Assembly (NCBI RefSeq): GCF_004010195.1
Contig: NC_057754.1
Location: forward strand, 11,811,609 to 11,875,608
DNA from: Chiloscyllium plagiosum
Lineage: Eukaryota
Direction: 5' to 3'
DNA: 64,000 bases
The stretch's first letter is position 1, and each line of letters begins with the position of its first letter. Position numbers and translations under genes: made by a program. The notes below the pieces were generated by a model that was not told the origin of the DNA, did not search any database, and worked only from the letters and a program-made list of their open reading frames with translations. Positions 332 to 64,000 of the stretch are shown one piece after another.

Positions 332-3300
332 TTAAATAAAAGCCCTGGTTAGGATAGCCGAAATATCTGTATTCATATAATTCAAGAAGGGCTGCCATAT
401 TTTATAAAATAATTCCGTCTTTCGGTGCACCATATTTGTAAGGAAGTCAAGGGGAATACATTTCATAATTAATCTGTGCCAATTTGAAAGTCCAGGGGAG
501 CCCTCAGCCACCCAGTTTACCAAAATATTTTTCCTTGCAAAGAAAGAGAGAATCGAAAATAGTCTCATCCCATGCATGTCCAGGAGGATAAGTTCGAAAA
601 GCCCAAAAGGAGAGATACGGGGTCCACTTTAATTTCCGTTCCTAAAATTTCTGTCAGGGCACTTGCCACTTTAGTCCAGTATCTACGGATCTTATGACAG
701 GTCCATAGACCATTTACAAGAGTGTCCACCTCTATTTTACATTTGGGACACATTGGGGATGCTCCCGCCTTAAATTTTGCCAATCGATCTGGTGCTATAT
801 GGGCCCTATGAAGTATCTTCAGCTTGATAGCCTGAGTTCTGTTACAGATAGTGATTCTTCTGGCGTTTCCCAAATGTAATTCCACGTTCCTATAGAGATA
901 TCTAGTCCCAATTCCTGATCCCATGTTTTAAGCAGATTGTCCATATATCCCGATACTTCATCATGTAGTAAATGATAAATAGTGCTGATGGAGGATACCC
1001 CCATTGGTCGTAGTACTCTACATTCTCTATCTGATTTATAAAGACTATCTAATAACGTAGTCTTCTTCTGTATATAGTCTCGAATTTGGAAGTATCGACA
1101 GAGGTCTCCATTAGGTAATCCGACTTTCTGACGCAGCTGTTCAAAAGACATCAAGACCCCATCTTCCAATAGGCCCCCTCGACATGAGATACCCCTGGAT
1201 CTCCAGAGTTTAAAAGTGGCATCTGTAAACCCCGGTTGGAATCTCCATGCTCCCACTATCGGCGCATAGGGGGATGTTCTATGTGAGTTGCCCTCATTTT
1301 GCCGCATTACATTCTAAGCTTTAATTGTATTTATTATTATAGGGTTTTTACAGTGATCCGTAATGATTTTCCTCTTGTCTGAAAATAAAAGGTTAATAAG
1401 TGGGCATTTTACTTGAGAAGCTTCGATGTCCAGCCAGATTGATTGTGGATCAAACAAGACCCAATCAGCTATGTAACTTAATAAGGAACTTAACTGGTAT
1501 TTCCTAAAATCTGGGAAGTCCAATCCTCCCCTTGCCTGTGGAAGCTGTAGCTTCTACAACTTAATGAGGGGCCATCTATGATTCCAGATAAAGGAACCCA
1601 GCCAGACATATAATATACGTAGTGCCAGCCTCGGAAGCATCACCGGAAGCATTCTCATAGGGTATAGCAGACGGGGCAGGACATTCATTTTAATTAGTGC
1701 TATTCTACCCAGCCAGGAAAGTGGAAGGTCTCCCCACCACTGGAGGTCCTGCCTTATCCTTTCCAGTAAATGCACAAAGTTAGCCTTGTATAACTGACCA
1801 AATACTGGGGTAACAAAAATGCCTAAATATAAGAAACCCTCCAGGGACCAACGAAAGGGAAAATGGGATCCATCCACTAAGTGGGGTATCATAGAAAGGC
1901 CACCCATTGGCATAGCCTCCGATTTTGAGAAATTAATTTTATAGCCTGAGAATGCGCTAAATGTATTAATAACTTGGATTAAGCGAGGTACGGACATCAG
2001 AGGATTACTGAGGAATAGAAGAACATCATCTGCATACAGGGTAATTTTACGTTTACCTGTACCAATCATCAGGGCCGTTATATTAGGATCAGCCCGTATA
2101 GCTTCTGCTAGTGGGTTCAATTATTAGCGTAAATAACAATGGCGAGAGAGGTCATCCCTGACGGCAGTCCCTACCCACACTGAAGCTATCCGAACCTAAT
2201 CCATTGGCAACCACAACTGCTTTGGGATCACTATACAATGTTGAGACCCATTTGGTAAACACCTTTCCAATGCCAAACCTTTCCAATGTGTAAAACAAAT
2301 ATGACCATCCAACCCTATCAAATGCCTTTTCCGCGTCTAATGAAACTCCTACTCCTGGTATCTTTCCCTGATGGCAGGCTTGAATCATATTCAAAACCCT
2401 TCTAATATTATTGGATGATCCACGGCCCTTAATAAACCCCGTCTGATCCTCCTTTATGATATATGGCAGTACCCTTTCTAGTCTCAATGCTAACGTTTTA
2501 GAAAGGATTTTAAAATCTACATTTAGCAAGGATATTGGTCTGTATGACGTACAATCTCTGGATCCTTTCCTTTTTTAAGGATAGGAGAGATAGTTGCCTC
2601 TTTCAGTGAAGGCGGGAGACAGCCCTGATTATATGCATAGTTATACATGTCCACCAGTGGACCAGCCAATATTTCTGTAAGTTCTTTATAGAATTCAGCT
2701 TGAAAACCATCTGGCTCAGGTGTCTTACCGCTATGAAGCTGCCTGATTGCGTCAAGTATTTCTTAGACTGTTAGGGGAGCGTTTAAGATGGATACCTGTT
2801 CCGGAGTTAGGCCCAGAACGGTCAAATGTTTTAAAAATGATTGCATCCTCCGAATCCTGTCTTCATAATCCTGCGATTTATATAAATCAGAATAAAATTT
2901 TCTAAAGATTGCAATAATCTTTTTATGATCACGAGTCAAAATACCCGTACTTTCCTTGATAGACTTGATAGTTTGAGGGGCCTTTTTTGCTTTGCAAGAA
3001 ATGCTAAGTATCCACCCGGTTTGTCGCCAAATTCATATAAACATTGTTTTGCAAATAATATTTCCCTCTTAGCCATTTGGGTATGTGTAGTGTTTAGAGC
3101 TGTCCTAAGGGCCGTAATCCTTTGCAATTTAATAACAGAAGGTCTATCAGCATATGCAGTTTCAGCTGCTTTTGAGCGTGCTTCGAGCAGACGCTGTTGT
3201 TCTCCCTTTAATGTTTTCTGGGTCGCTGAGTCGGAGATGATCAAACCTCGTGCATAAGCTTTGATGGTCTCCCACGTCATTGATGGGTTGCTAGCCGTAC

Positions 3301-4120
3301 CTAAATTAATTTCTAAAGAAGTTTTAAATTCTTGAGAGAATTACTTTACAAATTTACTGTTTTCATTAAGAATATGCTAATGCCAAGGGGATGTCCCATT
3401 GTTCCTCGCCTTGGTTTCCATATGTACAGCAGCGTGGCCGGAAATTGCTATGCTACCTATTTTACAGGATGATATGGAATTTTAAAAAATCGAGAGGGCA
3501 AAAATCATATCAATTCTGGTATGGCATTTATGTGGATTAGAGTAAAAAGAAAAGTGGATGAAGACATCTCCATACATCTGCTAATCCTAATTCTTTGCTC
3601 AGATCCACCAATTGTCTAGATCTGGGAGATACTCCTGCAGTGTTCTTGGGAATCCTATCTATTTCCGGATCCATAATACAATTAAAGTCTCCCCCTGTAA
3701 TTGTATGACGGGTACCAAGAGCCATCAAATTTGAGAAGGGTTCCGTTATAAATTTACAGGGGTGTGCCGGTGGGCAGTACAAATTTAAAATCCCATATTC
3801 CTCTCCATTTATAAAGGCTTTAATCAGAATATGTCGTCCAGATTCGTCTTTTATCTGATTTAGGATTTTGAAAGGGAAATTCTTCCGAACAAGAATAACA
3901 ACTCCCCAACTTTTTGTGCTAAAAGAAGAAAAAAAGGCCTGATCAAATCCACCCTGTCGTAATTTCAAGTGTTCTTTATCCAACAGATGTATCTCCGGTA
4001 GGAGAGCTATATCAACTCTTCCTTTCTTAAGATTTGATAATATTTTCTTCCTTTTGACAGGCGAATTACAACCCTTGACATTCCAAGTGCACCACTTAAC
4101 CGACTGATCAACCATAATCA
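332..4120 (-). pseudogene. L1 ORF2p (endonuclease, reverse transcriptase, Cys-rich tail), multiple frameshifts and stops
   Basis: EN motifs WNVKG, GGDFN and DVWR (3537-4196). RT motifs LNVDFKILSK, SLDAEKAFDRV, CRQG and LYADD (1554-2529). C-terminal CPKC...WTC (565-924). Confidence 0.93.
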
Positions 4121-4602
4121 TCCGGGCAAATCCGAGACCCCTCGGGAGGGGAAACCCTATCCAAAACATCCCGAGCATAGAGCATATAAAATTCACAAAA
4201 AATAAGGGCTCTCTAATACACTCACAACAATATAATAAAAACTATTTCGAAATAATAAAAAAAAATAAAACGTATTTAAACGGAGATTTTCCCCCTTGTT
4301 CCCAGGGGGTATCCCTTCCCTTCCAAAGGTCCATTGTATCCTCTCCCAACCAATGCCTCACCCTTGACCCAGGCGCTCCTCAATAGGATGAGGAGAATTC
4401 AGATATAATACAAAGCTAGAGTTAACAGTGAGCACCCTACCCCCACACCCCCAAGCCACACCTGGATATATTTGGTAATGTTAATACCATGTATAAACAT
4501 ATATAACTATAAAATTACAACCTCAACAAATAATAATACAAAATAGCAAGGGGAAATTACCCCGCTCCTAGAGACAGAGGTAAAATAGAATAAGGTAACC
4601 AC

Positions 4603-4644
4603 NNNNNNNNNNNNNNNNNNNNNNNNNNNNNNNNNNNNNNNNNN
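4603..4644. other. Assembly gap (N run)
   Basis: Run of N in the L1 inter-ORF region. Confidence 1.
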
Positions 4645-4659
4645 ATTATCTCTTACAAT

Positions 4660-5538
4660 TTATCTGAGAATCCAAAATTCCTTAGCCTTTTCTGGCGATC
4701 CAAAGTTATACACGGATCCTTCATGGTTAAAGCGTAGCGTCCCTGGGTAGCGTAAGGAGTACTGAAGATTTACGTCCCTTAAACACTTCTTCGTCTCATC
4801 GAATGCCTTCCTCTTTTGGACCAGAGCTGGGGAAAAGTTCTGGAATAACATGATCTTGGATCCTTTATAGATCATGGCTTGGGAATCTTTTCCAAGATTT
4901 CTTGAGGGTCCTAGGAGGCCTCTCCCTCTTGAGGCTTATTGAGGCCTCTCCCTATAGCTCTGCAGCCGAAACTGGACCGGGCGAGGGCGCTGGTTTGAGC
5001 CAGGCACCCACATATTGCAACCCGGTCGGCCCATTCCAACCTTACCTGGCCTGATCCAGCCTCCAGATTTAATAACTGTGGAAGCCACTGCTCGAGAAAC
5101 GCTGTCAGGTCGCCTTCCTCTTCCCGTTCGGGAAGGCCCAGCAAACGAATATTTTTTTCGGCGACCTCGATTATCGAGGTCATCAATATGATTCTCGAAG
5201 GTACGGACTCTCTGTTCGAGAGTCCGGAACCGATCCACGGCCGATTGCGCTGTGGTTTCGAAGGTCGCGGACTTTAGCTCCGCCCCTCCGATTCGGCGCT
5301 CGGTTTCCTTAATGTCTCGGTCGTGCTTTTGCAGCGCCGCCGAGAGTGAGTCCCATCGACTTCGGGATTCGTCAATGAAAGCGTCGATCTTCGCATCCAG
5401 TTTGGAGATGATTTCCACAAGGTTTGCCATTGTAGGTAAGTCCCCCGAGGCGGCTGCGGACGCCTCTGCTGCAGTTGGACAGGGTGGGGGAGGGGTTCCT
5501 GCTTGCTGAGAGCTGCGGGCTCCCCTCCCTTTAGTCAT
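4660..5538 (-). pseudogene. L1 ORF1p (coiled coil, RRM, CTD), frameshifted
   Basis: Coiled-coil segment ending LDNRGRRK, then NIRLLGLPE in another frame. C-terminal piece YKGSKIMLFQNFSPALVQKRKAF...YSLRYPGTLRF. Confidence 0.9.
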
Positions 5539-5688
5539 TTTTACTAAAGATTAGATTGTTTAAATTTAATACTAAGCAACTAATTAAATTAAACAGGTAT
5601 TTTAAATGACTTGGTGAGTGTGGTGGGGGTGGGTGGCCCACTTTGCCCAAATCTTGGGAGGAGCACAATAGACTCAGACTTGCAGGGT

Positions 5689-11745: not shown

Positions 11746-12175
11746 AAGACACGTGAAAATGACAAAATATACACAAGGATGTTGTCAACGTTTGGAGCGT
11801 AGGGCGAGGAGGAATAGGCTGGGACAACTTTACATGCAGTGTAACGGCTGCGACAAGATTTTCTGCCCAGTTTCCAACTGGGGACGTTTCGCACGGAAGG
11901 CGAACGTGAAGACCACTACACTACATGACCAAGTCGCGGCCGGTGCGGCTGCGGCTGACTGGTGTCCCGCACTGAAATTTACAGCCGTTCTACGCTTCAC
12001 CTTTCCGTTTCCATTAGCTCGTTGTTGTCCAGCGTAATTCACATTTTGCAAAAGTAAAAAAAAAGACACGTGAAGTAGATGACAAAATATAGACGAGGAT
12101 GTCGCCAATGTTTGGAACGTCGGGCGAGGAGGAATAGGCTGGGACGACTTTACATGCAGTGTAACGGCTGCGACA
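11746..12175 (+). repeat. ~110-bp direct repeats (11746-11855 and 12063-12175) bracketing the tRNA-Val pseudogene
   Basis: Both read aagacacgtgaa...gggcgaggaggaataggctgggac(a/g)actttacatgcagtgtaacggctgcgaca. Confidence 0.9.
11858..11930 (-). pseudogene. tRNA-Val-derived pseudogene
   Basis: Reverse complement GGTCATGTAGTGTAGTGGTCTTCACGTTCGCCTTCCGTGCGAAACGTCCCCAGTTGGAAACTGGGCAGAAAAT aligns over 73 nt with vertebrate tRNA-Val. Acceptor stem and anticodon are damaged. Confidence 0.8.
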
Positions 12176-12709: not shown

Positions 12710-13071
12710 AGCTGGAAGTTACCTCAGAAACCCTGTTAATTCGTAAGGTATTGAGCGAATCGCAAAACAGAACCCATTTAACACGGATCGCAAACTAAAC
12801 TGGCAAACCAAATGCATTTTCAGACACAGCAAAGCTGAATGCTGACTGTGAGGGCAGGAGCCATAAACTAATCTCACAACAATTCCAAACGACTGTTTCA
12901 AACATACTGGAGCATTAGTGCACAACCACTTCGAAGAAAGTGCTGTAAAGAGAGAAAGAAAGAACTTAATAAGAATGGGCCATAAAAAGTGAATTTCACC
13001 AATCACAGTCTCGATTAGATTACCTTTCCCTTCCAATGTCTCCAGGACTGAAATGAAAGAAATGGGAGAAA
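12710..13071 (+). repeat. Dispersed copy of segment 47958-48329
   Basis: Near-identical gctggaagtta.ctcagaaaccctgttaa...tccaggac.gaaatgaa.gaaatgggagaaa. Confidence 0.9.
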
Positions 13072-13571
13072 NNNNNNNNNNNNNNNNNNNNNNNNNNNNN
13101 NNNNNNNNNNNNNNNNNNNNNNNNNNNNNNNNNNNNNNNNNNNNNNNNNNNNNNNNNNNNNNNNNNNNNNNNNNNNNNNNNNNNNNNNNNNNNNNNNNNN
13201 NNNNNNNNNNNNNNNNNNNNNNNNNNNNNNNNNNNNNNNNNNNNNNNNNNNNNNNNNNNNNNNNNNNNNNNNNNNNNNNNNNNNNNNNNNNNNNNNNNNN
13301 NNNNNNNNNNNNNNNNNNNNNNNNNNNNNNNNNNNNNNNNNNNNNNNNNNNNNNNNNNNNNNNNNNNNNNNNNNNNNNNNNNNNNNNNNNNNNNNNNNNN
13401 NNNNNNNNNNNNNNNNNNNNNNNNNNNNNNNNNNNNNNNNNNNNNNNNNNNNNNNNNNNNNNNNNNNNNNNNNNNNNNNNNNNNNNNNNNNNNNNNNNNN
13501 NNNNNNNNNNNNNNNNNNNNNNNNNNNNNNNNNNNNNNNNNNNNNNNNNNNNNNNNNNNNNNNNNNNNNNN
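13072..13571. other. Assembly gap (500 N)
   Basis: Run of N. ORFs spanning it are artefacts. Confidence 1.
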
Positions 13572-14273
13572 ACCAGGAGCAGTTACCCTCCCAGCATGTA
13601 GGACTGTGTACACCATCCCAGTGCATTACTCAGTAACACTGAGATCACTGCCCAGTGTGGGGAAAATTGCAGCCCATGCTGGAAGTGTCAGGATGTGCAG
13701 CTCCCATACACTTACAGCTCCATATCTCCATTGTACCATGACAAGGGGGGTGCTGTGGCTGTGAACATCACTGCCAGTTAGAGATGGCGGGGGAATCAGT
13801 TTAAATATCACCACATGGGAGGGGTTTGGGAAGCAGACAGAGAGGGGGAGACTGAGAGACAGTGTCATGGAAGGATGTGTTCCCAGGTTTCAGAATGCTG
13901 AAATGTAGACAGTTGGATAGAATCGTGTAACATGAGCCAGTCTTCCCAAGAAAGATGGGAAAAAGGGATATTGGTGTGAGGTCAGATGAACATTTGTTCT
14001 GCATCTTTGTAACTGGAATTGGTTTCAACAGAACCTATGACTCATTAGGCAGATTCTAACAATAATTTATTTTTGTGTGATTTTCCTTGAGTGTGACAGA
14101 GGGATTATCTGCACGAGGCCGAGCTAATTTCCTGGTGCTATCTTATCGAACTCCCCTCATTAACTACCCACCCCACACCATGGTGTCCCTCTCATTCAAT
14201 ACCAGCCCGATGTTCCGACCCATCATGGCTGGAGGTACTCACCATCGCCCGGGTGCCCCTGGATATTCTGACC

Positions 14274-19732: not shown

Positions 19733-20857
19733 ACAAAGAACAAAGAAAATTTACAGCCCAGCAACAGGCCCTTCAGTCCTCCAAGCCTGAGCCGATCCAA
19801 ATCTAGTGTCGAAAACTGTCGGTCAATTCCTAAGCATCTGTATCCCTCTGTTCCCCAACTACTCATGCATTTATCCAGTTGCATCTTAAATGAATCTACC
19901 ATGCCTGCCTCTACCACCTCTGCTGGCAACGCGTTCCAAATGCCCAAACCTCCGTGTGAAATACTTGCCGTGTGTATCTACCTTAAACTTTCCACCTCTC
20001 ACCTTGAAACCGTGACCTCTCGTTATTGAATCCTTCACCCTGGGAAAAAAGCTTGTCTCTATCCACCCTGTCTATACCCTTCATGATTTTGTAAAGCTCA
20101 ATCAGGTTCCCCCTCAATCTCCTTTTTCTAACCTATTCAACCTTTCTTTATAGCTAGCACCTTGCATACCAGGCAACATCATCGTAAACCTTCTTTGCAC
20201 CCTCTCCAAAGTGTCCACATCATTTTGGTAATGTGGTGATCAGAACTATACACAGTATTCTAAATACGGCCTTGTACAATGTTAACATGAATTGCCAGCT
20301 CTTATACCCATTACCCTGTCCAATGAAAACAAGCATACCATATGCCTTCTTGACCACTCTATCCACCTGTGCAGCAACCTTCTGGGTAAAATGGACCTGC
20401 ACGTCCAGATTTCTCTGCACATCACCTTTTCCCAAGGCTCTTCCGTTCATTGTATAATTCGCTCTAGAATTAGTCTTGCCTACATGCATCACCTCACCTT
20501 TGTCTGGATTAAAAACCATCTGCCACTTTTCTGCCCAACTCTCCAGTCGATCTGTATCCTCCTGTATTCTCTGACAGTCCCTTGTGCTTTCTGCTACTCC
20601 CCCAATCTTCATGTCATTTGCAAACTTGCTAATCATGCGAACAGTTCCCTCTTCCAGATCATTTATATACATTACAAACAACAGTGGCCCCAACACTGAC
20701 CCTTGTGGAACACCACGAGTCACATTTCTCCGTTTTGAGAAACTCCCTTCAACTACTACTCTCTGTCTCCTGTTTGTTAACCAGTTCTTTATCCACCTCG
20801 CTAGAACACCCTGCACACCATATGACTTCAATATCTCCATTAGTCTACCATGGGGAA
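19733..20857 (-). mobile_element. 5'-truncated CR1 LINE inserted in a (GT/GC)n microsatellite
   Basis: RT motifs GVPQGSVLGPLLF, FAND and WAEKWQM. C-terminus WNALPAEVVEAG. Short (TTCTTTG)n tail at about 19733-19748. Confidence 0.92.
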
Positions 20858-21099
20858 CGTGTGTGTGTGTGCGCGCGCCAGTGTTTTTAGAAAGGGAAAT
20901 ATCGATTCTTTATTTTCAATATCCAAACCATATGCTATTCATCTTTCCATCATACTTTGAGTTACATTGCTCTGGATCATAAACGTGCTATTTCAGCTGA
21001 TTAAATAAACTAGCTTGACTTGTTCCTAAAACTGACTCTGACCCAGTCTAAGATCGATATCATCGGCCATATCACCAATCTGGTTACATTTAACATTTG

Positions 21100-22555: not shown

Positions 22556-22675
22556 ATGCCTGATGAATGGCTTATGCCCAAAACATGGATTCCCCTGCTC
22601 CTGAGATGCTGCCTGACCTGCTATGCTTTTCCAGCAATCCACTCTCTACTCCGACCTCCAATATCGGCAGTCTTA
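22556..22675 (+). mobile_element. Short Penelope-type terminal repeat with a degenerate hammerhead core
   Basis: CTGATGA-atggc-ttat-gccc-AAAAC followed by the same body as 59055-59190. Confidence 0.65.
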
Positions 22676-25699: not shown

Positions 25700-26600
25700 T
25701 TTCTTTAAATATGCGATAACACATCTGCTATCACATTTTAGGACCCACAGCATGTACATTTTGTAAGCTTAAAGCCGGTAACATAAGACTCCAATGAAAT
25801 AGTCTTTTATCCGGGTCTTTAAATATTCCAAATAATGTGAGAGGTTTGTTGTTGTCCACAATCATATCCGACAATTTGCTTGTCATATAAACATTAAAAT
25901 ATTGTCAGTCCAGTGCGAAATCTAATCATTCTTTTTCACTCATGGGGATGTTTTACTTTTTCGACAAGTAGCCAATTGGCCATTCAATTCCATTATCATC
26001 TTTCTGAATCAATACGTCTCCGACCACTATATCACTCTCATCAAATACAATTTTCAAATGTTTTCAAAATATTTGGTGTAGCTAAAACTGGTGCAGTGAT
26101 TAATCCTGCTTTAAAATTCTCAAATGCCTCCTGGCATTGTTCTGTCCACCACAATTCTGTGTTCTTCTTTAATAAATCCATCAGTGGTGCCAATACACTG
26201 CTGAAGTTTGCAACAAACTTCCGATCGAATTCACTCAGTTCCAAAAACCACACCACCTCTTTCTTCGAGGATGATCGTGGAAATTCCTCAAAGCCCTTCG
26301 TTTTTGTGTTCCATGGGGTCAACCTTCCATGTCCAATGTAATGTCCCAAGAACGTCCCCTCTGCCTTCGCGAATTCTGTTTTCTTTAATTTTATTACCAA
26401 GTTTGCTTCTTGTAATCGTTCAACATGCTCTGCCAACTGTAATATGTGAGCTTTCAATCACTTGCTAAAGGTCATAAAGATAAACTGCCCATTTTGTTTA
26501 TCTGGCCACAACTCTGTTCCTGAGTCTTAAATGTGTCTGGAGCATTGTTCATTCACATGACATTCTCTAACGATTTTTTGTCATATCCGGTAACTTTATC
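25700..26600 (-). pseudogene. Gypsy RT C-terminus, connection and RNase H remnant
   Basis: RLQEANLVIKLKKTEFAKAEGTFLGHYIG...FVANFSSVLAPLMDLLKK...WTEQCQEAFE..LITAPVL, ending in NVIADVLS. Confidence 0.88.
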
Positions 26601-27550: not shown

Positions 27551-27902
27551 ATACTACTGCTAACACAATCTGGTGCATTTCGGCCCATTTCCCTTCTGCA
27601 ATAACCTGTTGTAGTCTCAATTTTAACTTTAGAGTTCTATCTTTAAGTTAATAATGCTCACAATGTATTATGATTCATTTTCTCAGTGTTTGTGTGTGTG
27701 TGTATGCATGTGTGTATGTGTTGTAAGTCCCCCAGGACTAAACACCTCTGCCTGACCCTCTGCCTGTTCAGGTTTTGTTTCCTGCACCGATACATCAAAC
27801 AGGGTGTCAGTTAACTGAGCATCAACTCCTTTTTTTTCTTTCGTTTTCTTTAACTGCAGCAACTTTTGACAGTGGGAGTCTGTTACTACACAGTTTGGAA
27901 AA

Positions 27903-28778
27903 TTCAAAGTTTGGGTGAAGATTTGTAGCTCGGGTGCTCGTTGTTGTGGTTCTGTTCGCCGAGCTGGAAATTTTTGTTGCAAACGTTTCGTCCTCTGTCT
28001 AGGTGACATCCTCAGTGATTGGGAGCCTCCTGTGAAGCGCTTCTGCGGTGTTTCCTCCGGCATTTATAGTGGCCTGTCCCTGCCGCTTCCGGTTGTCAGT
28101 TTCAGCTGTCCGCTGTGGTGGCCGGTATATTGGGTCCAGATCGATGTGTTTGTTGATGGAGTTTGTGGATGAGTGCCATGCTTCTAGGAATTCCCTGGCT
28201 GTTCTTTGTTTCGCTTGCCCTATAATGGTAGTGTTGTCCCAGCCAAATTCATGTTGCTTGTCGTCTGCGTATGTGGCCACTAGGGATGGCTGGTCGTGGC
28301 GTTTCGTGGCTCGTTGATGTTCATGGATGTGGGTATCTGTTTTTGGTGAATACCTTGTACAGGTGTTCCTCTTCCTCTTTTTGCAGTTCTGGTGTGCTGC
28401 AGTGTGTTGTGGCCCTTTTGAATAGTGTCTTGATGCACCTTCGTTTGTGTGTGTTGGTGTGGTTGCTTTCATAGTTCAGGACTTGATCTGTGTGTGTGGC
28501 TTTCCTGTGTACCTTTGTGGTGAATTCTCCGTTCGGTGTTCTCTGTACCATTACGTCGAGGAATGGGAGTTGGTTATCCTTTTCTTCTTCTCTCGTGAAT
28601 CGGATTCCTGTTAGTGTGGCGTTGATGATCCGGTGTGTTTTCTCTATTTCTGTGTTTTTAATGATTACAAAGTCCTCATCAACATATCTGACCCAGATTT
28701 TGGGTTGAATTTGTGGTAAGACTTTTTGTTCTAACCTTTGCATTACTGCTTCTGCTATGAGTCCAAAGATCGCTGAGC
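27903..28778 (-). mobile_element. Penelope-like element fragment (RT C-terminus, GIY-YIG-region C-terminus, terminal repeat)
   Basis: WVRYVDEDFV, FTREEEKDNQLPFLDV, HRKATHTDQVLNYESNH and AREFLEAWHS...INKHIDLDPIY. Confidence 0.92.
27978..28018 (-). ncRNA. Minimal hammerhead ribozyme core in the Penelope terminal repeat
   Basis: Reverse complement tca-CTGAGGA-T-GTC(acctagacagag)GAC-GAAACGTT-tgc. Stem III is the palindrome ACGT. Confidence 0.6.
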
Positions 28779-28999
28779 AAATTCTTTGTAGAGATCAGGC
28801 ACTGACTCCACAACCAGCCCCTGCTTCGGCTGTACACTCTCCCACGGCTCCTCGTCTTCACTTGGGGTCTCCTTCACCAGTTTCACTAATCCACTGGCTT
28901 AACCTCTTTTACCACATCTGTGTCCGAGCGTACTGCAATGAAAACGCCTTTTTCCCAGTGCCCCTCTTAAACCATCGGTATTATAATTTTATTTGTTCC

Positions 29000-30360: not shown

Positions 30361-30665
30361 TGTTTGCAAGTTGGCTCGCTGAAGCGCAGTGGTATGTCCC
30401 GCCTCTCTATTTATAGCCCTTCGTTTCTTAAAGTGAGTGATGCCATTTCCGGTTCTTCTTTTTTAGAGGAGAATGTAGATTGGATCTAAATTAATGTGTT
30501 TATTGATGGACTTCTGGTTAGAATGCCATTACTCTAAGAAGGTCCATGCATGTCTCAGCATGTGTGTGTGTTGCCCCAGTGAAAGTGGTCCCCTTCTCTT
30601 AATGTAAGGAACATAGTGATAGTGGGTCGTGTCTTTTGGTGGCCAGTTGGGGTTCATGTATCCTG
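30361..30665 (-). mobile_element. Older Penelope-like fragment truncating the Gypsy 5' LTR
   Basis: Reverse complement translates FLE*WHSNQKSINKHINLDPIY, homologous to the 27999-28472 ORF. Confidence 0.7.
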
Positions 30666-31379
30666 GTAGCACGACAACAGTAGCACGACAATGGTGGAAA
30701 AATGATTTTATATACACTGTTTAATCAATGTGTGTTTGCTAATAAGTAATATTTTTCATCTGTGCGCAACATTCTAAATGAACAGCGGAGACACAGTCAA
30801 CGAAAAAAGATGCATATGATGGATAAAATTGATAAAACATTAAAATATTATTTGATGCTCATCTAAAGTGATATGTTCCCCTTCTCTCAACGTTCCCCTC
30901 CCTTTATGGAATTCCTTCCTCTTTTCTCTCATTCTTATCAGGATGTGTTATAATTTCTTGCTTCTGGTGTCCCAACTTATTTCAGTTAATCCCCTTTCTA
31001 CCAGGAAATAAATATATTGGCCTGCTGGGTTCTTTCCAAAGCTAGCGTCTGTCATATTATTGGAGATAAGTATTCTGGCATCAGATCCAGCATTTGAACA
31101 TATTACTCTGTTGTACTTGCACTATACAAAGGACTGCAGCAACTGGAATTGCCAAAATATTGCAGAATGTACATCTACTTCTTTGAATAACCTAGTTTTC
31201 TCATTTTTCACATGTCCTCGTCGATATTCTCTCTCTCTTTCTCTCTTTGTATCTAGTTAAGAAATTTATCAATTATTCTTCGCATGCCTTCTCTCAAAAC
31301 TCCTTCTTTCGGTTTATATCTATCGGTCTCTTCTCGATGTAATGTGATTATAAGTGAGCAACGTAACAACACAGACATG

Positions 31380-52125: not shown

Positions 52126-52978
52126 CTGGAATTGATTACTATTAGCATCCTCAGCTGTAAGTATTTTAGTTTGACTATTGCCCTAGGAAAGATGTAACAT
52201 GTAAACAATAAAAAGGTTTCTCTTGCTTATGTTTCTGTGGGGCAATCGCATTATTTTAATAGCATTTTGCTGTTCTGTTGGTTCGATATTCATTAAAAAT
52301 GGTAAACTGTGGATTAAAATATAGTAGCTGGCTTTAAGGATAGGTGAAAAAATAAGAGCCATTCACCGAAAGTTGAACAGAATTGTTTTTGCTCAAAAAT
52401 GCAGGTAATAAATAAAATATATATTTATATCTATATACTGGTATTCTTCTAGAGCAATGTTATCTTAAATTATGTAATTATTGTTATCAATGTTGATATA
52501 TTTGTGTCAGAATTAGGAAGAAAAAATCCATACAATCAAAGTGAACATTACACTGAACAAAAGCTACATTGAGTGACATTTGACTGGAAAAGGAATTTTC
52601 ATAAATATGTCATCAATGTACGTTGATATATAACATTTAAATAAGAAAGACAAGACTGGAACAACTTCAAAGCAGTTTTCTTATTATGAAACGAAAATAA
52701 TACGCATGAATTGAAAAACAGTCTTTAATGTGTCATATCAGCTGAAGACCACTTGCCATTTTCCAGAAATGCAGGACTTCCAAAAATTCAAAATTTAGCG
52801 TTGGTGAATAATACAATAAAATATATGCAACATCAGCTTTCTCTTGCACACAGGAAAGAACAAGAAAATGTAAAAGATTTTCAGCATGAAAAAGATTTAG
52901 TTCTTAGTATTACAATCAATATCCATTCAAAAGTGTAATTGTTTCTTTAAGCAGCAGACATTTTGTTTAATTACTAAG

Positions 52979-53776
52979 GTGAGGGTGAGTTGGAGGTTTG
53001 GATTAGGAATTGGCTGGATGGAAGAAGACAGAGGGTAGTAGTTGATGGCAAAGTTTCTTCATGGAGTGCCGTCACTAGCGGTGTTCCGCAAGGATCTGTT
53101 TTGGGACCATTGCTGTTTGTCATTTTTATAAATGACCTGGAAGAGGGGTTAGAAGGTTGGGTGAGCAAGTTTGCGGATGACACAAAAGTCGGAGGAGTTG
53201 TTGACAGTGAGGAAGCATGTGGCAGGTTACAGCAGGATATAGAGAAGCTGCAGAGCTGGGCAGAAAGATGGCAAATGGAATTCAATGTAGCTAAGTGTGA
53301 GGTGATTCACTTTGGGAAGAATAACAAAAAGATGGGGTACGGGGCTAATGGTCGGATACTTGGTAGTGTGGATGAGCAGAGGGATCTTGGTGTCCATGTA
53401 CACAGATCTCTGAAAGTTGCCACCCAGGTAAATACCGTGGTGAGGAAGGCATATGGCGTACTGGCTTTTATCGGTAGAGGAATTGAGTTCCGGAGTCCTG
53501 AGGTCATGATGCAGTTGTATAAGACTCTGGTACGACCGCATCTGGAATATTGTGTGCAGTTTTGGTCGCCATACTATAGGAAGGATGTGGAGGCATTGGA
53601 ACGGGTGCAGAGGAGGTTTACCAGGATGTTGCCTGGTATGGAAGAAAAATCGTATGAGGAAAGACTGAGGCACTTGGGGCTGTTTTCATAGGTTAGGTGG
53701 GCTTGGATCGGCGCAACATCGAGGGCCAAAGGGCCTGTACTGCGCTGTATTCTTCTATGTTCTATGTTCTATGTTC
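52979..53776 (+). mobile_element. Young 5'-truncated CR1 LINE with uninterrupted RT C-terminal ORF
   Basis: 233-codon ORF with GVPQGSVLGPLLF, SKFADDTK, WAERWQM and LVRPHLEYCVQFWSP. (TTCTATG)n tail. Confidence 0.95.
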
Positions 53777-56280: not shown

Positions 56281-58002
56281 TAATGAACAGCAGAGCGTGA
56301 ATTAGTCATTCAATGTGACTGTTCACGTGAAGACAACTTTCCTCCATTACAAAAAAGTTAAATTTTCAAACATTAAAAAAGATTGTTTAATGAAACAACA
56401 AAGAGATGTTTTTTCTTTTTTGTTGTGTGAAACATCAGGAATTTCAAATTATTTTTTAGCATGAAGAATAGTTCATTCTTATTGTGATTATAAACACAAT
56501 AAATGTTAGCATTGAAGTGAAAATACTTAAATGAATTCAACATTGTTTTCACCATTAAAATAAAACTTGATACTCACAATGATTGAGAGATTATACACTG
56601 CAATATTTTTATATTGTTCATATACTGAGTTGTAATTCCACATTGATGAAAGATACTGGATTGAACAATTATTAGAAATTCGCAGCAAGTGGATTATCAA
56701 AATTCTATCAGTCAGTTTAAGAATAATGAGAAATCTCATATTGCTGTTTGACTGAGCAATGTATAGAAACGAACAGGAATTATTCCAACGAAAGGTAATT
56801 ATAGTTCTCTGAATTTTTTAGTCAGAGGTTATTGTGATTTTTCAAATGAGCAAATATCAGACATTTACAAAGAGTGTTTGATTGGAAGTCATTGGTTCCA
56901 TTGTGGGATAGTTTACCTGCAAAAATAATGGATTTTTATATTGTAGCATTCGTTAAACTTAACTTAAAATTAACTTAAAATGTGAATTTCACTATATTTG
57001 TTAGACTAATTGAAATACTTGTGCAATTATTGCAATGATAATGATTGGACAATTAATGTTGTCTTGGAAACAAATAAATTGATTCAATAGCTTAACAACA
57101 CTATGAAGGTTGGTAAACAAAGGAATATAACATTAGGTTTAAAGATTGAACCAAAAAAAACGAGCCATTCAGTGATTATTGGACAAAGTTTTGTTTTTGT
57201 TTTAAAACTTATAACAAATCAAGATCATCAACATCCCAAAAATGTTGGTGCTAGCATCCTCAGCCATCTGCAATAAAACAAACTATTGGTTTTAACTGCA
57301 TATGCAACTGTGTAATTACTGAATTGAAATATAAGATATCGATTGAATTCGTTGGATGGAATGACCAGCAAATGTTAACTGTGGTTCTTGCTCTCAAGAA
57401 CAAGAAGAAACTGAGGTGATTCTGCTCAACATTAATTATATGATCACCAAGACCTTTGTGTGGCTCGATATGCCATGTATTGATTTCAATTACATTGAGA
57501 TATTTTATGTGATATCAGAATGGATTAATGATTGGGTGTTAAGTGAGATATTTGCAACATCGATATTCAAGTGAACAGACTCCAATATTTTCAAAGCATT
57601 TCAATTTCACCCTATATATGAGTAGGCGAGTGGCAAATAAAAGGAGCTCTCACTACATCAATTAAAGAGGAAGGAGAAATTTAATTTGATCAAAATATGG
57701 AGCCATAATGAGATTAATTACAATATTTTGTTGTATAATAAAGGTAATCACAGACTGAAGAGCAATAGGAATTGGCATCTGTTTCATTTACTGAAGGAGA
57801 AATCAATTTTTTATCTTGCACAGTAGAGAAAAAGGACTGAGGTACGTGAGGTGCTGAAATGCATATTGTTTATGTGTTAAATGTTTATTGAAACTCTTGC
57901 AGGATTGAATTCACAGAATATATCATATTTGAACATTCCTGAGCTGATTGGCAGTAAAATGATATTGCTCACTTTATGGATAATAATGGGATTCTTTTTA
58001 AA

Positions 58003-58310
58003 AATTCTCTACAGTGTGGAAACAGGCCCTTTAGCCCAACAAGTCCACAGCGACCCTCCAACGAGTAACGCACTCAGTACCATTTCCCTCTCACTAATGC
58101 ACCTAACACTATAGACAATTTAGCATGGCCAATTCACCTAACCTACACATCTTTGGACTGTGGGAGGAAGCCGGAATGCCCAGACGAACCCACACAGACA
58201 TGGGGAGAATGTGCAAACTCCTCACAGACAGTCGCCCGAGGCTGGAGTGGAACCTGGGACCCTGGTACCGTGAAGCCACAGAGGGAACTACTGAGCCACC
58301 ATGCTGTCCC
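58003..58310 (-). mobile_element. HE1-like SINE
   Basis: acagtgtggaaacaggccct...ggactgtgggaggaa...actgagccaccatgctgtccc. Confidence 0.85.
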
Positions 58311-58590
58311 AATTTTTATCAGATATTTTAAACAAAAAAATCATTATTTAGATATTTTAAGTTTTAAAAAATACAATGTTCTCAAATTAAAAATTTACAG
58401 ATACTACAATGAGATACATATTTTTGTTAGTGACCTGAAGATAATAAGTTGCAGAGTTCTGTGATTATGGGAATGAACAACAGATCGAAGCAAATCCAAT
58501 GTTGAATTGAAAAGCAAATTTTCGAACCAACATTCTGAGCTGCTCTGACACATGTCTATTGAAGGTGGGAATGCCTTCTAGTCTTGTAGT

Positions 58591-58798
58591 CATGATTTGG
58601 AGATACCAGTGTTGGACTGGGGTGTACAAAATTGAAAATCACACAACACCAGGTTATAGTCCAACAGGTTTAATTGGAAGCAAACTAGCTTTCGGAGCGA
58701 CACTCCTATCACCTGATGAAGGAGCGTCGCTCCGAAAGCTAGTGTGCTTCCAATTAAACCTGTTGGACTATAACCTGGTTTTGTGTGATTTTTAACTT
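58591..58798. mobile_element. Palindromic non-autonomous element (Penelope-type terminal repeat) with 12-bp TSD
   Basis: Inverted arms at about 58628-58707 and 58720-58799. Flanked by TAGTCTTGTAGT at 58579-58590 and 58799-58810. Confidence 0.85.
58710..58744 (+). ncRNA. Minimal type I hammerhead ribozyme
   Basis: CAC-CTGATGA-A-GGAGC(GTC)GCTCC-GAAAGCTA-GTG: intact core, 5-bp stem II, palindromic AGCT stem III and stem I CAC/GTG. Confidence 0.75.
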
Positions 58799-59054
58799 TA
58801 GTCTTGTAGTTGAGACATTGCCAGAGCTACACAAGAGCCTTTCATTATGTTCTCACCAAGGAAGGGTGGGAGTATTGTCACATCTTCACTGTGGTTATGC
58901 AAATGAAAACTAAACAAGATTCGTTGCGATAATTGGCCTGATTCTGTGTGTAATGGACTAACAATGACGTCGTAATTCAAAATAATAACGGTACAAAGCA
59001 CAAATGGTCTCAAATCAGAAAATTTTGCAACATGAGGAACTCAGAAAAAAAGTG

Positions 59055-59190
59055 TTATTCCTGAAGAAGGGCTCATGCCCGAAACGTCGATTCTCCTGCT
59101 CCTTGGATGCTGCCTGACCTGCTGCGCTTTTCCAGCAACTCACTTTCAGCTCTGATCTTCAGCATCTGCAGTCCTCACTTTTTCCCTTCC
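59055..59190 (+). mobile_element. Short Penelope-type terminal repeat carrying a hammerhead core at 59059-59090
   Basis: TC-CTGAAGA-A-GGGC(TCAT)GCCC-GAAACGTC-GA, then gatgctgcctgacctgctgcgcttttccagc... Confidence 0.75.
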
Positions 59191-60074
59191 TTCCAGTACT
59201 GTACAACTTTCAACAATTCAAAATTTACTCTGATTGATAAAGGAAAGAGCAAACAGCTGTAAATTCTTTTTCTTGTTTACACAAAAAACTCACAAAATTT
59301 GAGCTAATTTTTCACATTGAAAATACTGAACTCAGTGTAATCAGAAATGTTAGCATTGCAGGAAAATATAATCAAATCAAAACACACATCGATATACACA
59401 ATTATTGGGAGATTGAACACTGCAAATCCTTTTCATCAGTTGATGTACTGAGCCATAATTCCACTGTTATACCCCTTAATGTACTGAGCAACTATTAGAT
59501 TTTAGCAATAACTAAATTATTAATATGCTATGAGTGAACTGAAAATAAATAAGAAATCTCTCATTGCTATTTGAACAAGCAATATGTATAAATAAACAGT
59601 ATTTATTGGACAAAATGTCATTAGAATCTCATGATGGATGACGCTGTGATTACTTTGACTGTTCAAATGAGTAGCAATCAGCTATTTCCAATGAGCATTG
59701 GATGGAAAATTAATGCTTTTGTTTTATGAACTTGAATAAAATGCTTTGGTTTATTGTAATATTGGCACTAAGAGATAATGGATTAAGGTAAGATATGAAT
59801 TTCAGAAGTTTTCTGACAGGTTTCTAGTCAAACTATGAGTGAAAAATTATGGCTCAGTACATCAGTAACTGTAAACATTTTAAACACATGCATTAAAGAT
59901 ATTTGTTAATTCAGAACAAAAATTGAAAAATGACCTCTGTAAACGTCATTGGCCGTATCTTTCGACTATACTCAAGTTTGTTGTTTACCTATTTTCGTCC
60001 TAATTCTGACAGTCACGGTTAAATATTCATTATATTAAATGTCATGTGAGTTACACATTCCTTTACTTGAAATG

Positions 60075-63102: not shown

Positions 63103-63240
63103 TTTGAAGAAGGGTCACTGGACCCAAAGCATGAACTCTGCTTTCTCTCTGCAGATGCTGCCAGACTTGCTGAGCTTTATTCCAGCAACTTCTGATTTTA
63201 TTTCTGATTTCCAGCATGCACATTTCTTTGGTTTCTTGCA
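63103..63240 (+). mobile_element. Degenerate copy of the hammerhead-bearing short repeat
   Basis: tTGAAGA-A-GGGTC(actg)GACCC-aaagc followed by gatgctgccagacttgctgagc...ccagca. Confidence 0.6.
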
Positions 63241-63380
63241 TTGATTGTCTTTCACATTAATGCTAGCATTATATATTTCTAACTATTACAATAAGAGCTA
63301 ACTATTTTTCATGCTCAAAATCATTTAAATTTCATGTGTTACTTCTGTACACAAAACAAAATTAACATATGTTTGTTCTT

Positions 63381-63863
63381 GTTGTGGTTCTGATCGCCGA
63401 GCTGGAAATATTTGTTGCAAACGTTTCGTCCCCTATCTAGGTGACATCCTCAGTGCTTGGGGGCCTCCTGTGAAGCGCTTCTGTGGTGTTTCCGCCGGCA
63501 TTTTTAGTGGCCTGTCCCTGCCGCTTCTGGTTGTCAGTTTCAGCTGTCCGCTGTAGTGGCCGGTATAACAAAGAACAGCCAGGGAATTCCTAGAAGCATG
63601 GCACTCATCCACAAACTCCATCAACAAGCACATCGACCTGGACCCAATATACAGCGGACAGCTGAAACTGACAACCGGAAGCGGCAGGGACAGGCCACTA
63701 TAAATGCCGGAGGAAACACCACAGAAGCGCTTCACAGGAGGCTCCCAAGCACTGAGGATGTCACCTAGACAGGGGACAAAACGTTTGCAACAAAAATTTC
63801 CAGCTCAGTGAACAGAACCACAACAACGAGCACCCGAGCTACAAATCTTCACCCAAACTTTGA
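63381..63863 (+). mobile_element. Penelope element 3' end with an inverted terminal-repeat copy and 14-bp TSD
   Basis: 63381-63567 is the reverse complement of the terminal repeat in about 63650-63827. The plus part encodes QRTAREFLEAWHSSTNSINKHIDLDPI. ATATGTTTGTTCTT occurs at 63367-63380 and 63864-63877. Confidence 0.92.
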
Positions 63864-64000
63864 ATATGTTTGTTCTTTTCGTCAACACTGAATCTTGAAT
63901 TGGTAGAAATCACAAATTTGTGCAAATAAGGGAAGTTGTCTTCAGCTGAGGAGTCATATTGAATGAAAAATTCTTTATTTCCAATCCATGAGCTTTAATT

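Follow-up and report, generated by a model that had tools for sequence, protein, structure and literature searches.

A palindromic, hammerhead-bearing insert in a shark genome is probably a dead-on-arrival Penelope-like insertion of two truncated 3′ ends joined head to head

Insertions of EN+ Penelope-like elements (PLEs) show a recognizable architecture. According to the available parts of the published descriptions, they share an inverted, 5′-truncated copy lying head to head with the direct one, a 30-40 bp tail at one end only, a short target-site duplication (TSD) of 8-10 bp and a hammerhead near the 3′ end (PMC8557442, PMC3846280). Inverted pLTRs and short 3′ extensions are likewise among the known features of the class (PMC8969392), and strong 5′ truncation is normal (PMC8557442, PMC8969392). 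How the inverted ends and tails are made is still described as undefined (PMC8557442, in the part available): palindromes have been read as self-priming on an antisense template (PMC3846280), and the tail has been ascribed to resolution by the endonuclease (PMC8557442). The accessible account of the Anolis Poseidon element PAc reports that the element's protein cleaves each strand of the target and extends both, that reverse transcription begins at two sites which delimit the tail, and that uncut RNA is the template, with the ribozyme dispensable in vitro (PMC11167929). The minimal hammerheads of metazoan PLEs are mostly single dispersed motifs, with opposite-strand pairs 100-700 bp apart also mentioned, and were found to have no activity as monomers and low activity as dimers (PMC4209133, in part); dimer cleavage was studied by Lunse et al., as cited in a review (PMC6765202, in part). 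Non-LTR retrozymes, which are present in the one cartilaginous fish sampled, are non-coding, carry type I hammerheads and are related to pLTRs (PMC7229834; 10.64898/2026.07.22.740005; both in the portions available), and PLEs themselves have been reported in the whale shark (PMC8455134, in part).

Here we describe a locus at 58579-58810 of a 64,000-nucleotide stretch of the Chiloscyllium plagiosum genome (the window), which we regard as very probably a dead-on-arrival insertion of a highly abundant shark PLE, consisting of two heavily 5′-truncated 3′ ends placed head to head, one of them tailed, within a 12-bp TSD. The 3′ end copied is the pseudo-LTR with its minimal hammerhead. This reading builds on what can be read directly from the insert and its relatives, namely its anatomy, the abundance of its family, the two 3′ ends and the variable junctions. 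The original prediction of an almost perfect fold-back held up well: the arms at 58628-58707 and 58720-58799 form an inverted repeat of 80 nt each, 94% complementary and separated by a 12-nt spacer, and the fold energy of 58579-58810 is -139.9 kcal/mol (z = -18.0), a stability reached by none of 200 shuffles. The predicted 12-bp direct repeat, TAGTCTTGTAGT, is likewise exact. The window holds this 12-mer at 58579-58590 and 58799-58810 and nowhere else, and the pair resembles a TSD; a 12-bp direct repeat at the fold-back ends would arise by chance with a probability of about 2e-5, with 121 registers allowed for. The last ~4 nt of the left copy may also match the end of the element tail, and the first T of the right copy also fits the element.

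The two halves of the 208-bp insert are unequal. A one-sided extension of 37 nt at 58591-58627 (minus strand) has no partner in the fold-back and represents the PLE 'tail', which the other arm lacks. In the minus-strand direction, the left arm (58628-58707) matches the right arm from the base directly after the CUGAUGA box and then continues for the additional 37 nt; the insert is two head-to-head copies of one sequence end. The right, direct copy (58708-58798, plus strand) is 5′-truncated and tailless, with the shorter 3′ end and the whole ribozyme, and the left, inverted copy carries the extension but is cut directly after the first box and, because it starts there, has no ribozyme core. The two meet at 58706-58708, where 0-2 nt can be assigned to either arm. 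It had been proposed that the opposite strand holds a mirror copy of the hammerhead with a broken CUGAUGA box. The minus strand of the insert is indeed without any CUGANGA, but the box was not mutated: it was cut off by the junction at 58707/58708. The tail at 58591-58630, read on the minus strand, resembles a pyrimidine tract followed by CAG, with an ATG at the very end, and could possibly be an intron end and the start of an ORF.

On the plus strand, the insert carries a complete minimal type I hammerhead of the PLE kind at 58710-58744, as originally predicted. Stem I is formed by CAC (58710-12) and GUG (58742-44; 3 bp), followed by CUGAUGA (58713-19), a bulged A, stem II (58721-25/58729-33; 5 bp) and GAAA (58734-37), and a palindromic AGCU (58737-40) takes the place of stem III, with cleavage predicted after A58741. 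A strict descriptor of this motif matched in 0 of 100 shuffled windows, and a loose one gave 0.14 matches per shuffled window. The descriptor found four cores in the window (58713+, 59061+, 28015- and 63453-), each of which includes a 4-nt palindrome; 100 shuffled windows averaged 0.14 cores of any kind and 0.01 palindromic ones. Our own descriptor matches the core, but no hammerhead model is among the eight Rfam matches to the insert up to E = 1. The type I core, the bulged base before stem II, the G10.1-C11.1 pair and the palindromic 15.2-16.2 positions are shared with metazoan PLE hammerheads, and the stems of 3 and 5 bp compare with 4-5 and 7-8 bp in the Schistosoma families (PMC4209133, in the part available). 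Unlike the motifs described there, the hammerhead of the insert is buried in an 80-bp hairpin.

The earlier suggestion of a ribozyme sequestered by this hairpin agrees with the folding calculations. For the closing pair of stem II, the computed probability is 0.0 at each of six transcript lengths that include the left arm and 0.82-1.0 without it; stem I becomes unstable in folding once the transcript extends beyond 58750, and forcing the hammerhead fold in the full insert would cost 35 kcal/mol. For two strands, the free minimum (-34.9 kcal/mol) has stem II pairing between the strands and is not a dimer hammerhead. The ribozyme of this copy, inherited from the parent element, is most likely silent, because read-through of the plus strand would make the left arm first, which pairs with the ribozyme. 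Read-through of the hairpin might also yield double-stranded RNA.

To place the insert in its family, we compared the interval 58400-59000 with contig sets from three related organisms (X1, X9 and X14), in which 46,509, 49,030 and 33,598 contigs matched, respectively. Summed contig depth, which is not a copy number and gives an order of magnitude only, reaches the millions along the greater part of the two arms and the tail and is at most 3,000 on the flanks in all three sets; the insert itself is the single copy of its family within the window. A stretch of lower depth, 58673-58714, is one in which contigs either break off or match the right arm more closely. At 58705 the depth amounts to 2,927, 639 and 362, and at 58733 to 4.70, 2.11 and 1.44 million, so that the centre lies 1,604, 3,299 and 3,984 times below the arms (0.025-0.062%), a trough that depletion of long hairpins in short-read data would deepen. 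The 37-nt tail belongs to the family, because in X1 the depth at 58589-58609 is 1.5 million. Among the contig pieces listed, the tail end lies where pieces begin, at 58586-58591, and loose ends with unlike flanks gather at 58635 and 58797-58799, which marks the short 3′ end (18 of 931 rows listed; flank agreement 0.35-0.37, median length 168-255 nt). In all three sets, the rows listed show two end sites for the copies, separated by the length of one tail.

The junctions vary from copy to copy. Head-to-head joints from an antisense to a sense arm make up 14 of the 15 joints listed (of 349), and these 14 have 13 distinct antisense ends and 11 sense starts, each seen in one or two contigs per run; some of this scatter could stem from later deletions inside older palindromes. 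A joint of 'opposite strands' at 58680/58744 was left out of the count, as it reflects a colinear copy that changes from one arm to the other, and no empty-site joint is among the 15 listed. The listed loose ends behind 58680-58682 extend across an intact box, and 207 X1 contigs have non-palindromic sequence before 58710. Other arrangements of the family also occur, with X1 joints from 58798 to 58641 and from 58761 to 58635 running tail to tail, and a go-back joint in X9 from 58790 to 58712 with 40 letters between that is possibly a short tandem. An exact 21-mer of the arm had no matches in metagenome, prokaryote or viral contigs, as expected for shark DNA. Within the insert, four of the five differences between the arms are left-arm changes against the contig majority, and at the most divided sites of the family (58726, 58742 and 58754) the arms are the same, a pattern that fits one template and later drift. 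None of the family variants listed (40 of 143 rows) falls in 58713-19 or 58734-41; among the same rows, loop II varies (58726 G>A makes up 34-45% of the depth), and GUG persists despite a common 2-nt deletion at 58742. Drawn from these 40 rows, conservation of the hammerhead core across the family is suggestive only.

Taken together, the abundant arms, the low depth at the centre, the two ends one tail apart and the scattered joints argue that what is repeated is the 3′ end of a PLE, and that the fold-back was made at insertion. The original prediction had instead taken the ~200-bp palindrome as a MITE- or retrozyme-like family unit, and here it did not survive the comparison: the arms belong to a huge family, and the centre is a junction particular to each insertion. 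Neat boundaries, the direct repeat and at least five contig pieces, from three runs, that cross the centre with similar junctions could speak for amplification of the whole 208 bp as one mobile unit, but these pieces contain 2-4 gaps, the left end of the insert lies outside the arms, the hairpin would shut the ribozyme, and an unrelated family described below has the same build with arms that differ in length (189 and 299 bp); with the trough and the scattered junctions, this reading is already largely refuted and we consider it very improbable. A MITE is rejected on two counts: terminal inverted repeats at both ends are lacking, since the left end is 37 unpaired nt, and the centre depth and scattered junctions do not correspond to many copies of one fixed unit. 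Nor does the insert have the build of a tandem non-LTR retrozyme. Retrozymes are head-to-tail tandem arrays with a hammerhead in each unit, and in the account available they combine canonical hammerheads with circular RNA (PMC7229834); the insert is one head-to-head structure with a single, minimal core and one copy in the window.

Two further readings, an error of the assembly and a host gene for a small-RNA hairpin, are together extremely improbable. Inverted repeats do trouble short-read assemblies (PMC8557442, in part), but the arms differ at 5 of 80 sites, and both flank junctions are present in X1 contigs, though X1 may be the source sample. Rfam microRNA models match the insert, but their scores of 91.2, 40.8 and 28.3 bits lie far below the gathering thresholds of 249, 81 and 61 bits, and the arms are a high-copy repeat; a microRNA precursor was rejected, the matches reflecting the hairpin only.

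Of seven features of EN+ PLE insertions considered, four are found in the insert: a minimal type I hammerhead, an inverted truncated copy, a 37-nt tail, and variable truncation and junctions. The insert differs from described EN+ insertions in being truncated so deeply that no ORF remains. A protein search with an open 40-residue frame across the left arm returned no candidate, Pfam found nothing at its cut-off in five frames of the window, and searches with this one frame and one window copy linked no RT or GIY-YIG sequence to the family. A frame from the ATG in the CUGAUGA box stops after 8 codons, in contrast to PAc, whose ORF begins at stem II (PMC11167929, in part). An RT and GIY-YIG ORF was seen for a neighbouring PLE family and none was found for that of the insert; the Penelope RT/endonuclease proposed earlier stands as the likely mover.

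That neighbouring family provides a second head-to-head insertion in the window, ~5 kb away at 63367-63877, which is the only other close inverted repeat in a self-comparison and is flanked by a 14-bp direct repeat (63367-80 and 63864-77). Its antisense arm (63379-63567, 189 bp) is tailless, and its sense arm (63567-63865, 299 bp) carries a 39-nt tail and a remnant of the GIY-YIG C-terminus; the hammerhead is intact on the left arm, and its GAAA box is changed on the right. Both arms are 94% identical to a longer 5′-truncated copy at 27902-28790 (minus strand), which retains a C-terminal part of the RT, a GIY-YIG remnant, a minimal hammerhead at 28015 and a tail. The frame remnant at 28321-28794 has 51 homologues among 125 candidates, the closest, from Chiloscyllium and Hemiscyllium, being 85-88% identical, and two of four homologues scanned carry RVT_1 together with a GIY-YIG match that falls just short of the Pfam cut-off; it is these homologues that identify the family as PLE. 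Given the shared build and the GIY-YIG remnant, an unrelated, protein-coding PLE family leaves the same footprint, here with unequal arms. This family (28015/63453), and not that of the insert, is the PAc-like one: the copy at 27902-28790 appears Poseidon-like, with an ATG at the start of stem II as in PAc (PMC11167929, in the part available). A third family with a minimal hammerhead and an ACGU palindrome was noted at 59058-59185 (plus strand), 22559-22672 and 63154-63217; its copy at 59058-59185 lies 260 bp from the insert on the same strand and is truncated right at the core, and the AGCU/ACGU mismatch makes a mixed dimer unlikely. Yet another PLE has left a GIY-YIG remnant, older and more diverged, at 30475-30721 (minus strand).

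How might such an insert arise? We consider it somewhat better than an even chance that cDNA synthesis on the element RNA was primed by both ends of the target, each using a different one of the two RT start sites, that the two cDNAs came to a halt close to the hammerhead and were linked through 0-2 nt of microhomology, and that gap filling gave the 12-bp duplication, the fold-back being a by-product of insertion. Joining of two primed cDNAs would explain the inversion, the one-sided tail and the TSD at once. The tail delimited by two RT start sites and the cutting and extension of both strands are PAc data (PMC11167929, in part); the window copy spans the predicted cut site, in line with the uncut RNA template reported in that work. 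In the literature searched, which lay mostly outside subscription journals, we found no statement of a two-primer insertion model.

Self-priming of a single cDNA, or of an antisense template, by snap-back on a short palindrome on the 5′ side of the hammerhead is a rather improbable alternative. Self-priming has been proposed for PLEs (PMC3846280, in part), and ATCA/TGAT and CTCC/GGAG near the junction can pair, but a single event cannot produce the arrangement in the insert, in which the arm with the more downstream start is the tailed one, the second family's junction at 63567 is a 1-nt overlap with no palindrome, and the junctions of the insert's family scatter along the arm. In the insert, the arm with the longest upstream reach is the tailless one, so it could not have served as the source of the tailed arm. 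A single snap-back therefore fits poorly, and two primings are favoured here.

A different source for the RNA has also to be weighed, in which the insert stems from a short (~130-150 nt) non-autonomous, hammerhead-bearing sequence that derives from a PLE end and that a PLE protein copied in trans, with the fold-back still made at insertion. No coding sequence is tied to the family, its abundance is very high, and non-autonomous elements derived from pLTRs have been described (10.64898/2026.07.22.740005; PMC3846280; both in part). The sense arm begins at 58706-58708 in 4 of the 14 joints, as it does in the window copy, and upstream loose ends agree only at 0.46 among the rows listed. The 4 joints and the centre-crossing pieces are hints of a preferred 5′ boundary, but part of the clustering at 58708 stems from an edge effect, because the stretch compared has no element sequence upstream of that position. 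The upstream loose ends are short, with a median of 40 nt against 168-255 nt for unique flanks, as if entering more repeat (among the rows listed), and deep 5′ truncation by itself is usual among PLEs (PMC8557442, PMC8969392). We regard a derivative of this kind as unlikely. We would only tentatively hold that the insert records each cut strand priming its own cDNA from one of two RT start sites before the two were joined, in a family that may be a non-autonomous mini-PLE with RNA starting just upstream of the hammerhead.

The surroundings of the insert are rich in older repeats. A dispersed SINE-like repeat, presumably the shark HE1 SINE, occupies 58005-58310 and about eight other places, with copies 70-86% identical. 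Several direct repeats of 75-89% identity between 56500-57200 and 59340-59800, at a spacing of ~2,820 bp, suggest either an ancient duplication or a pair of old repeat copies flanking the insert. Decayed L1-like, CR1-like and gypsy-like frames, recognized by eye from translations, and a tRNA-like stretch scoring 31.9 bits lie at 565-5550 (minus), 20220-20909 (minus), 26041-26457 (minus), 52978-53691 (plus) and 11864-11925 (minus). The window also contains 542 N at about 13,070-13,610.

As a single locus, the insert matters little, since its architecture and insertion pattern are already described for the PLE class, a known class of retrotransposons. PLE stumps of such a build mimic MITEs and microRNA hairpins in annotation. 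An abundant family of this kind supplies many junctions for comparing how PLEs make their inverted ends and tails, and is large enough for the two-primer model to be tested by counting.
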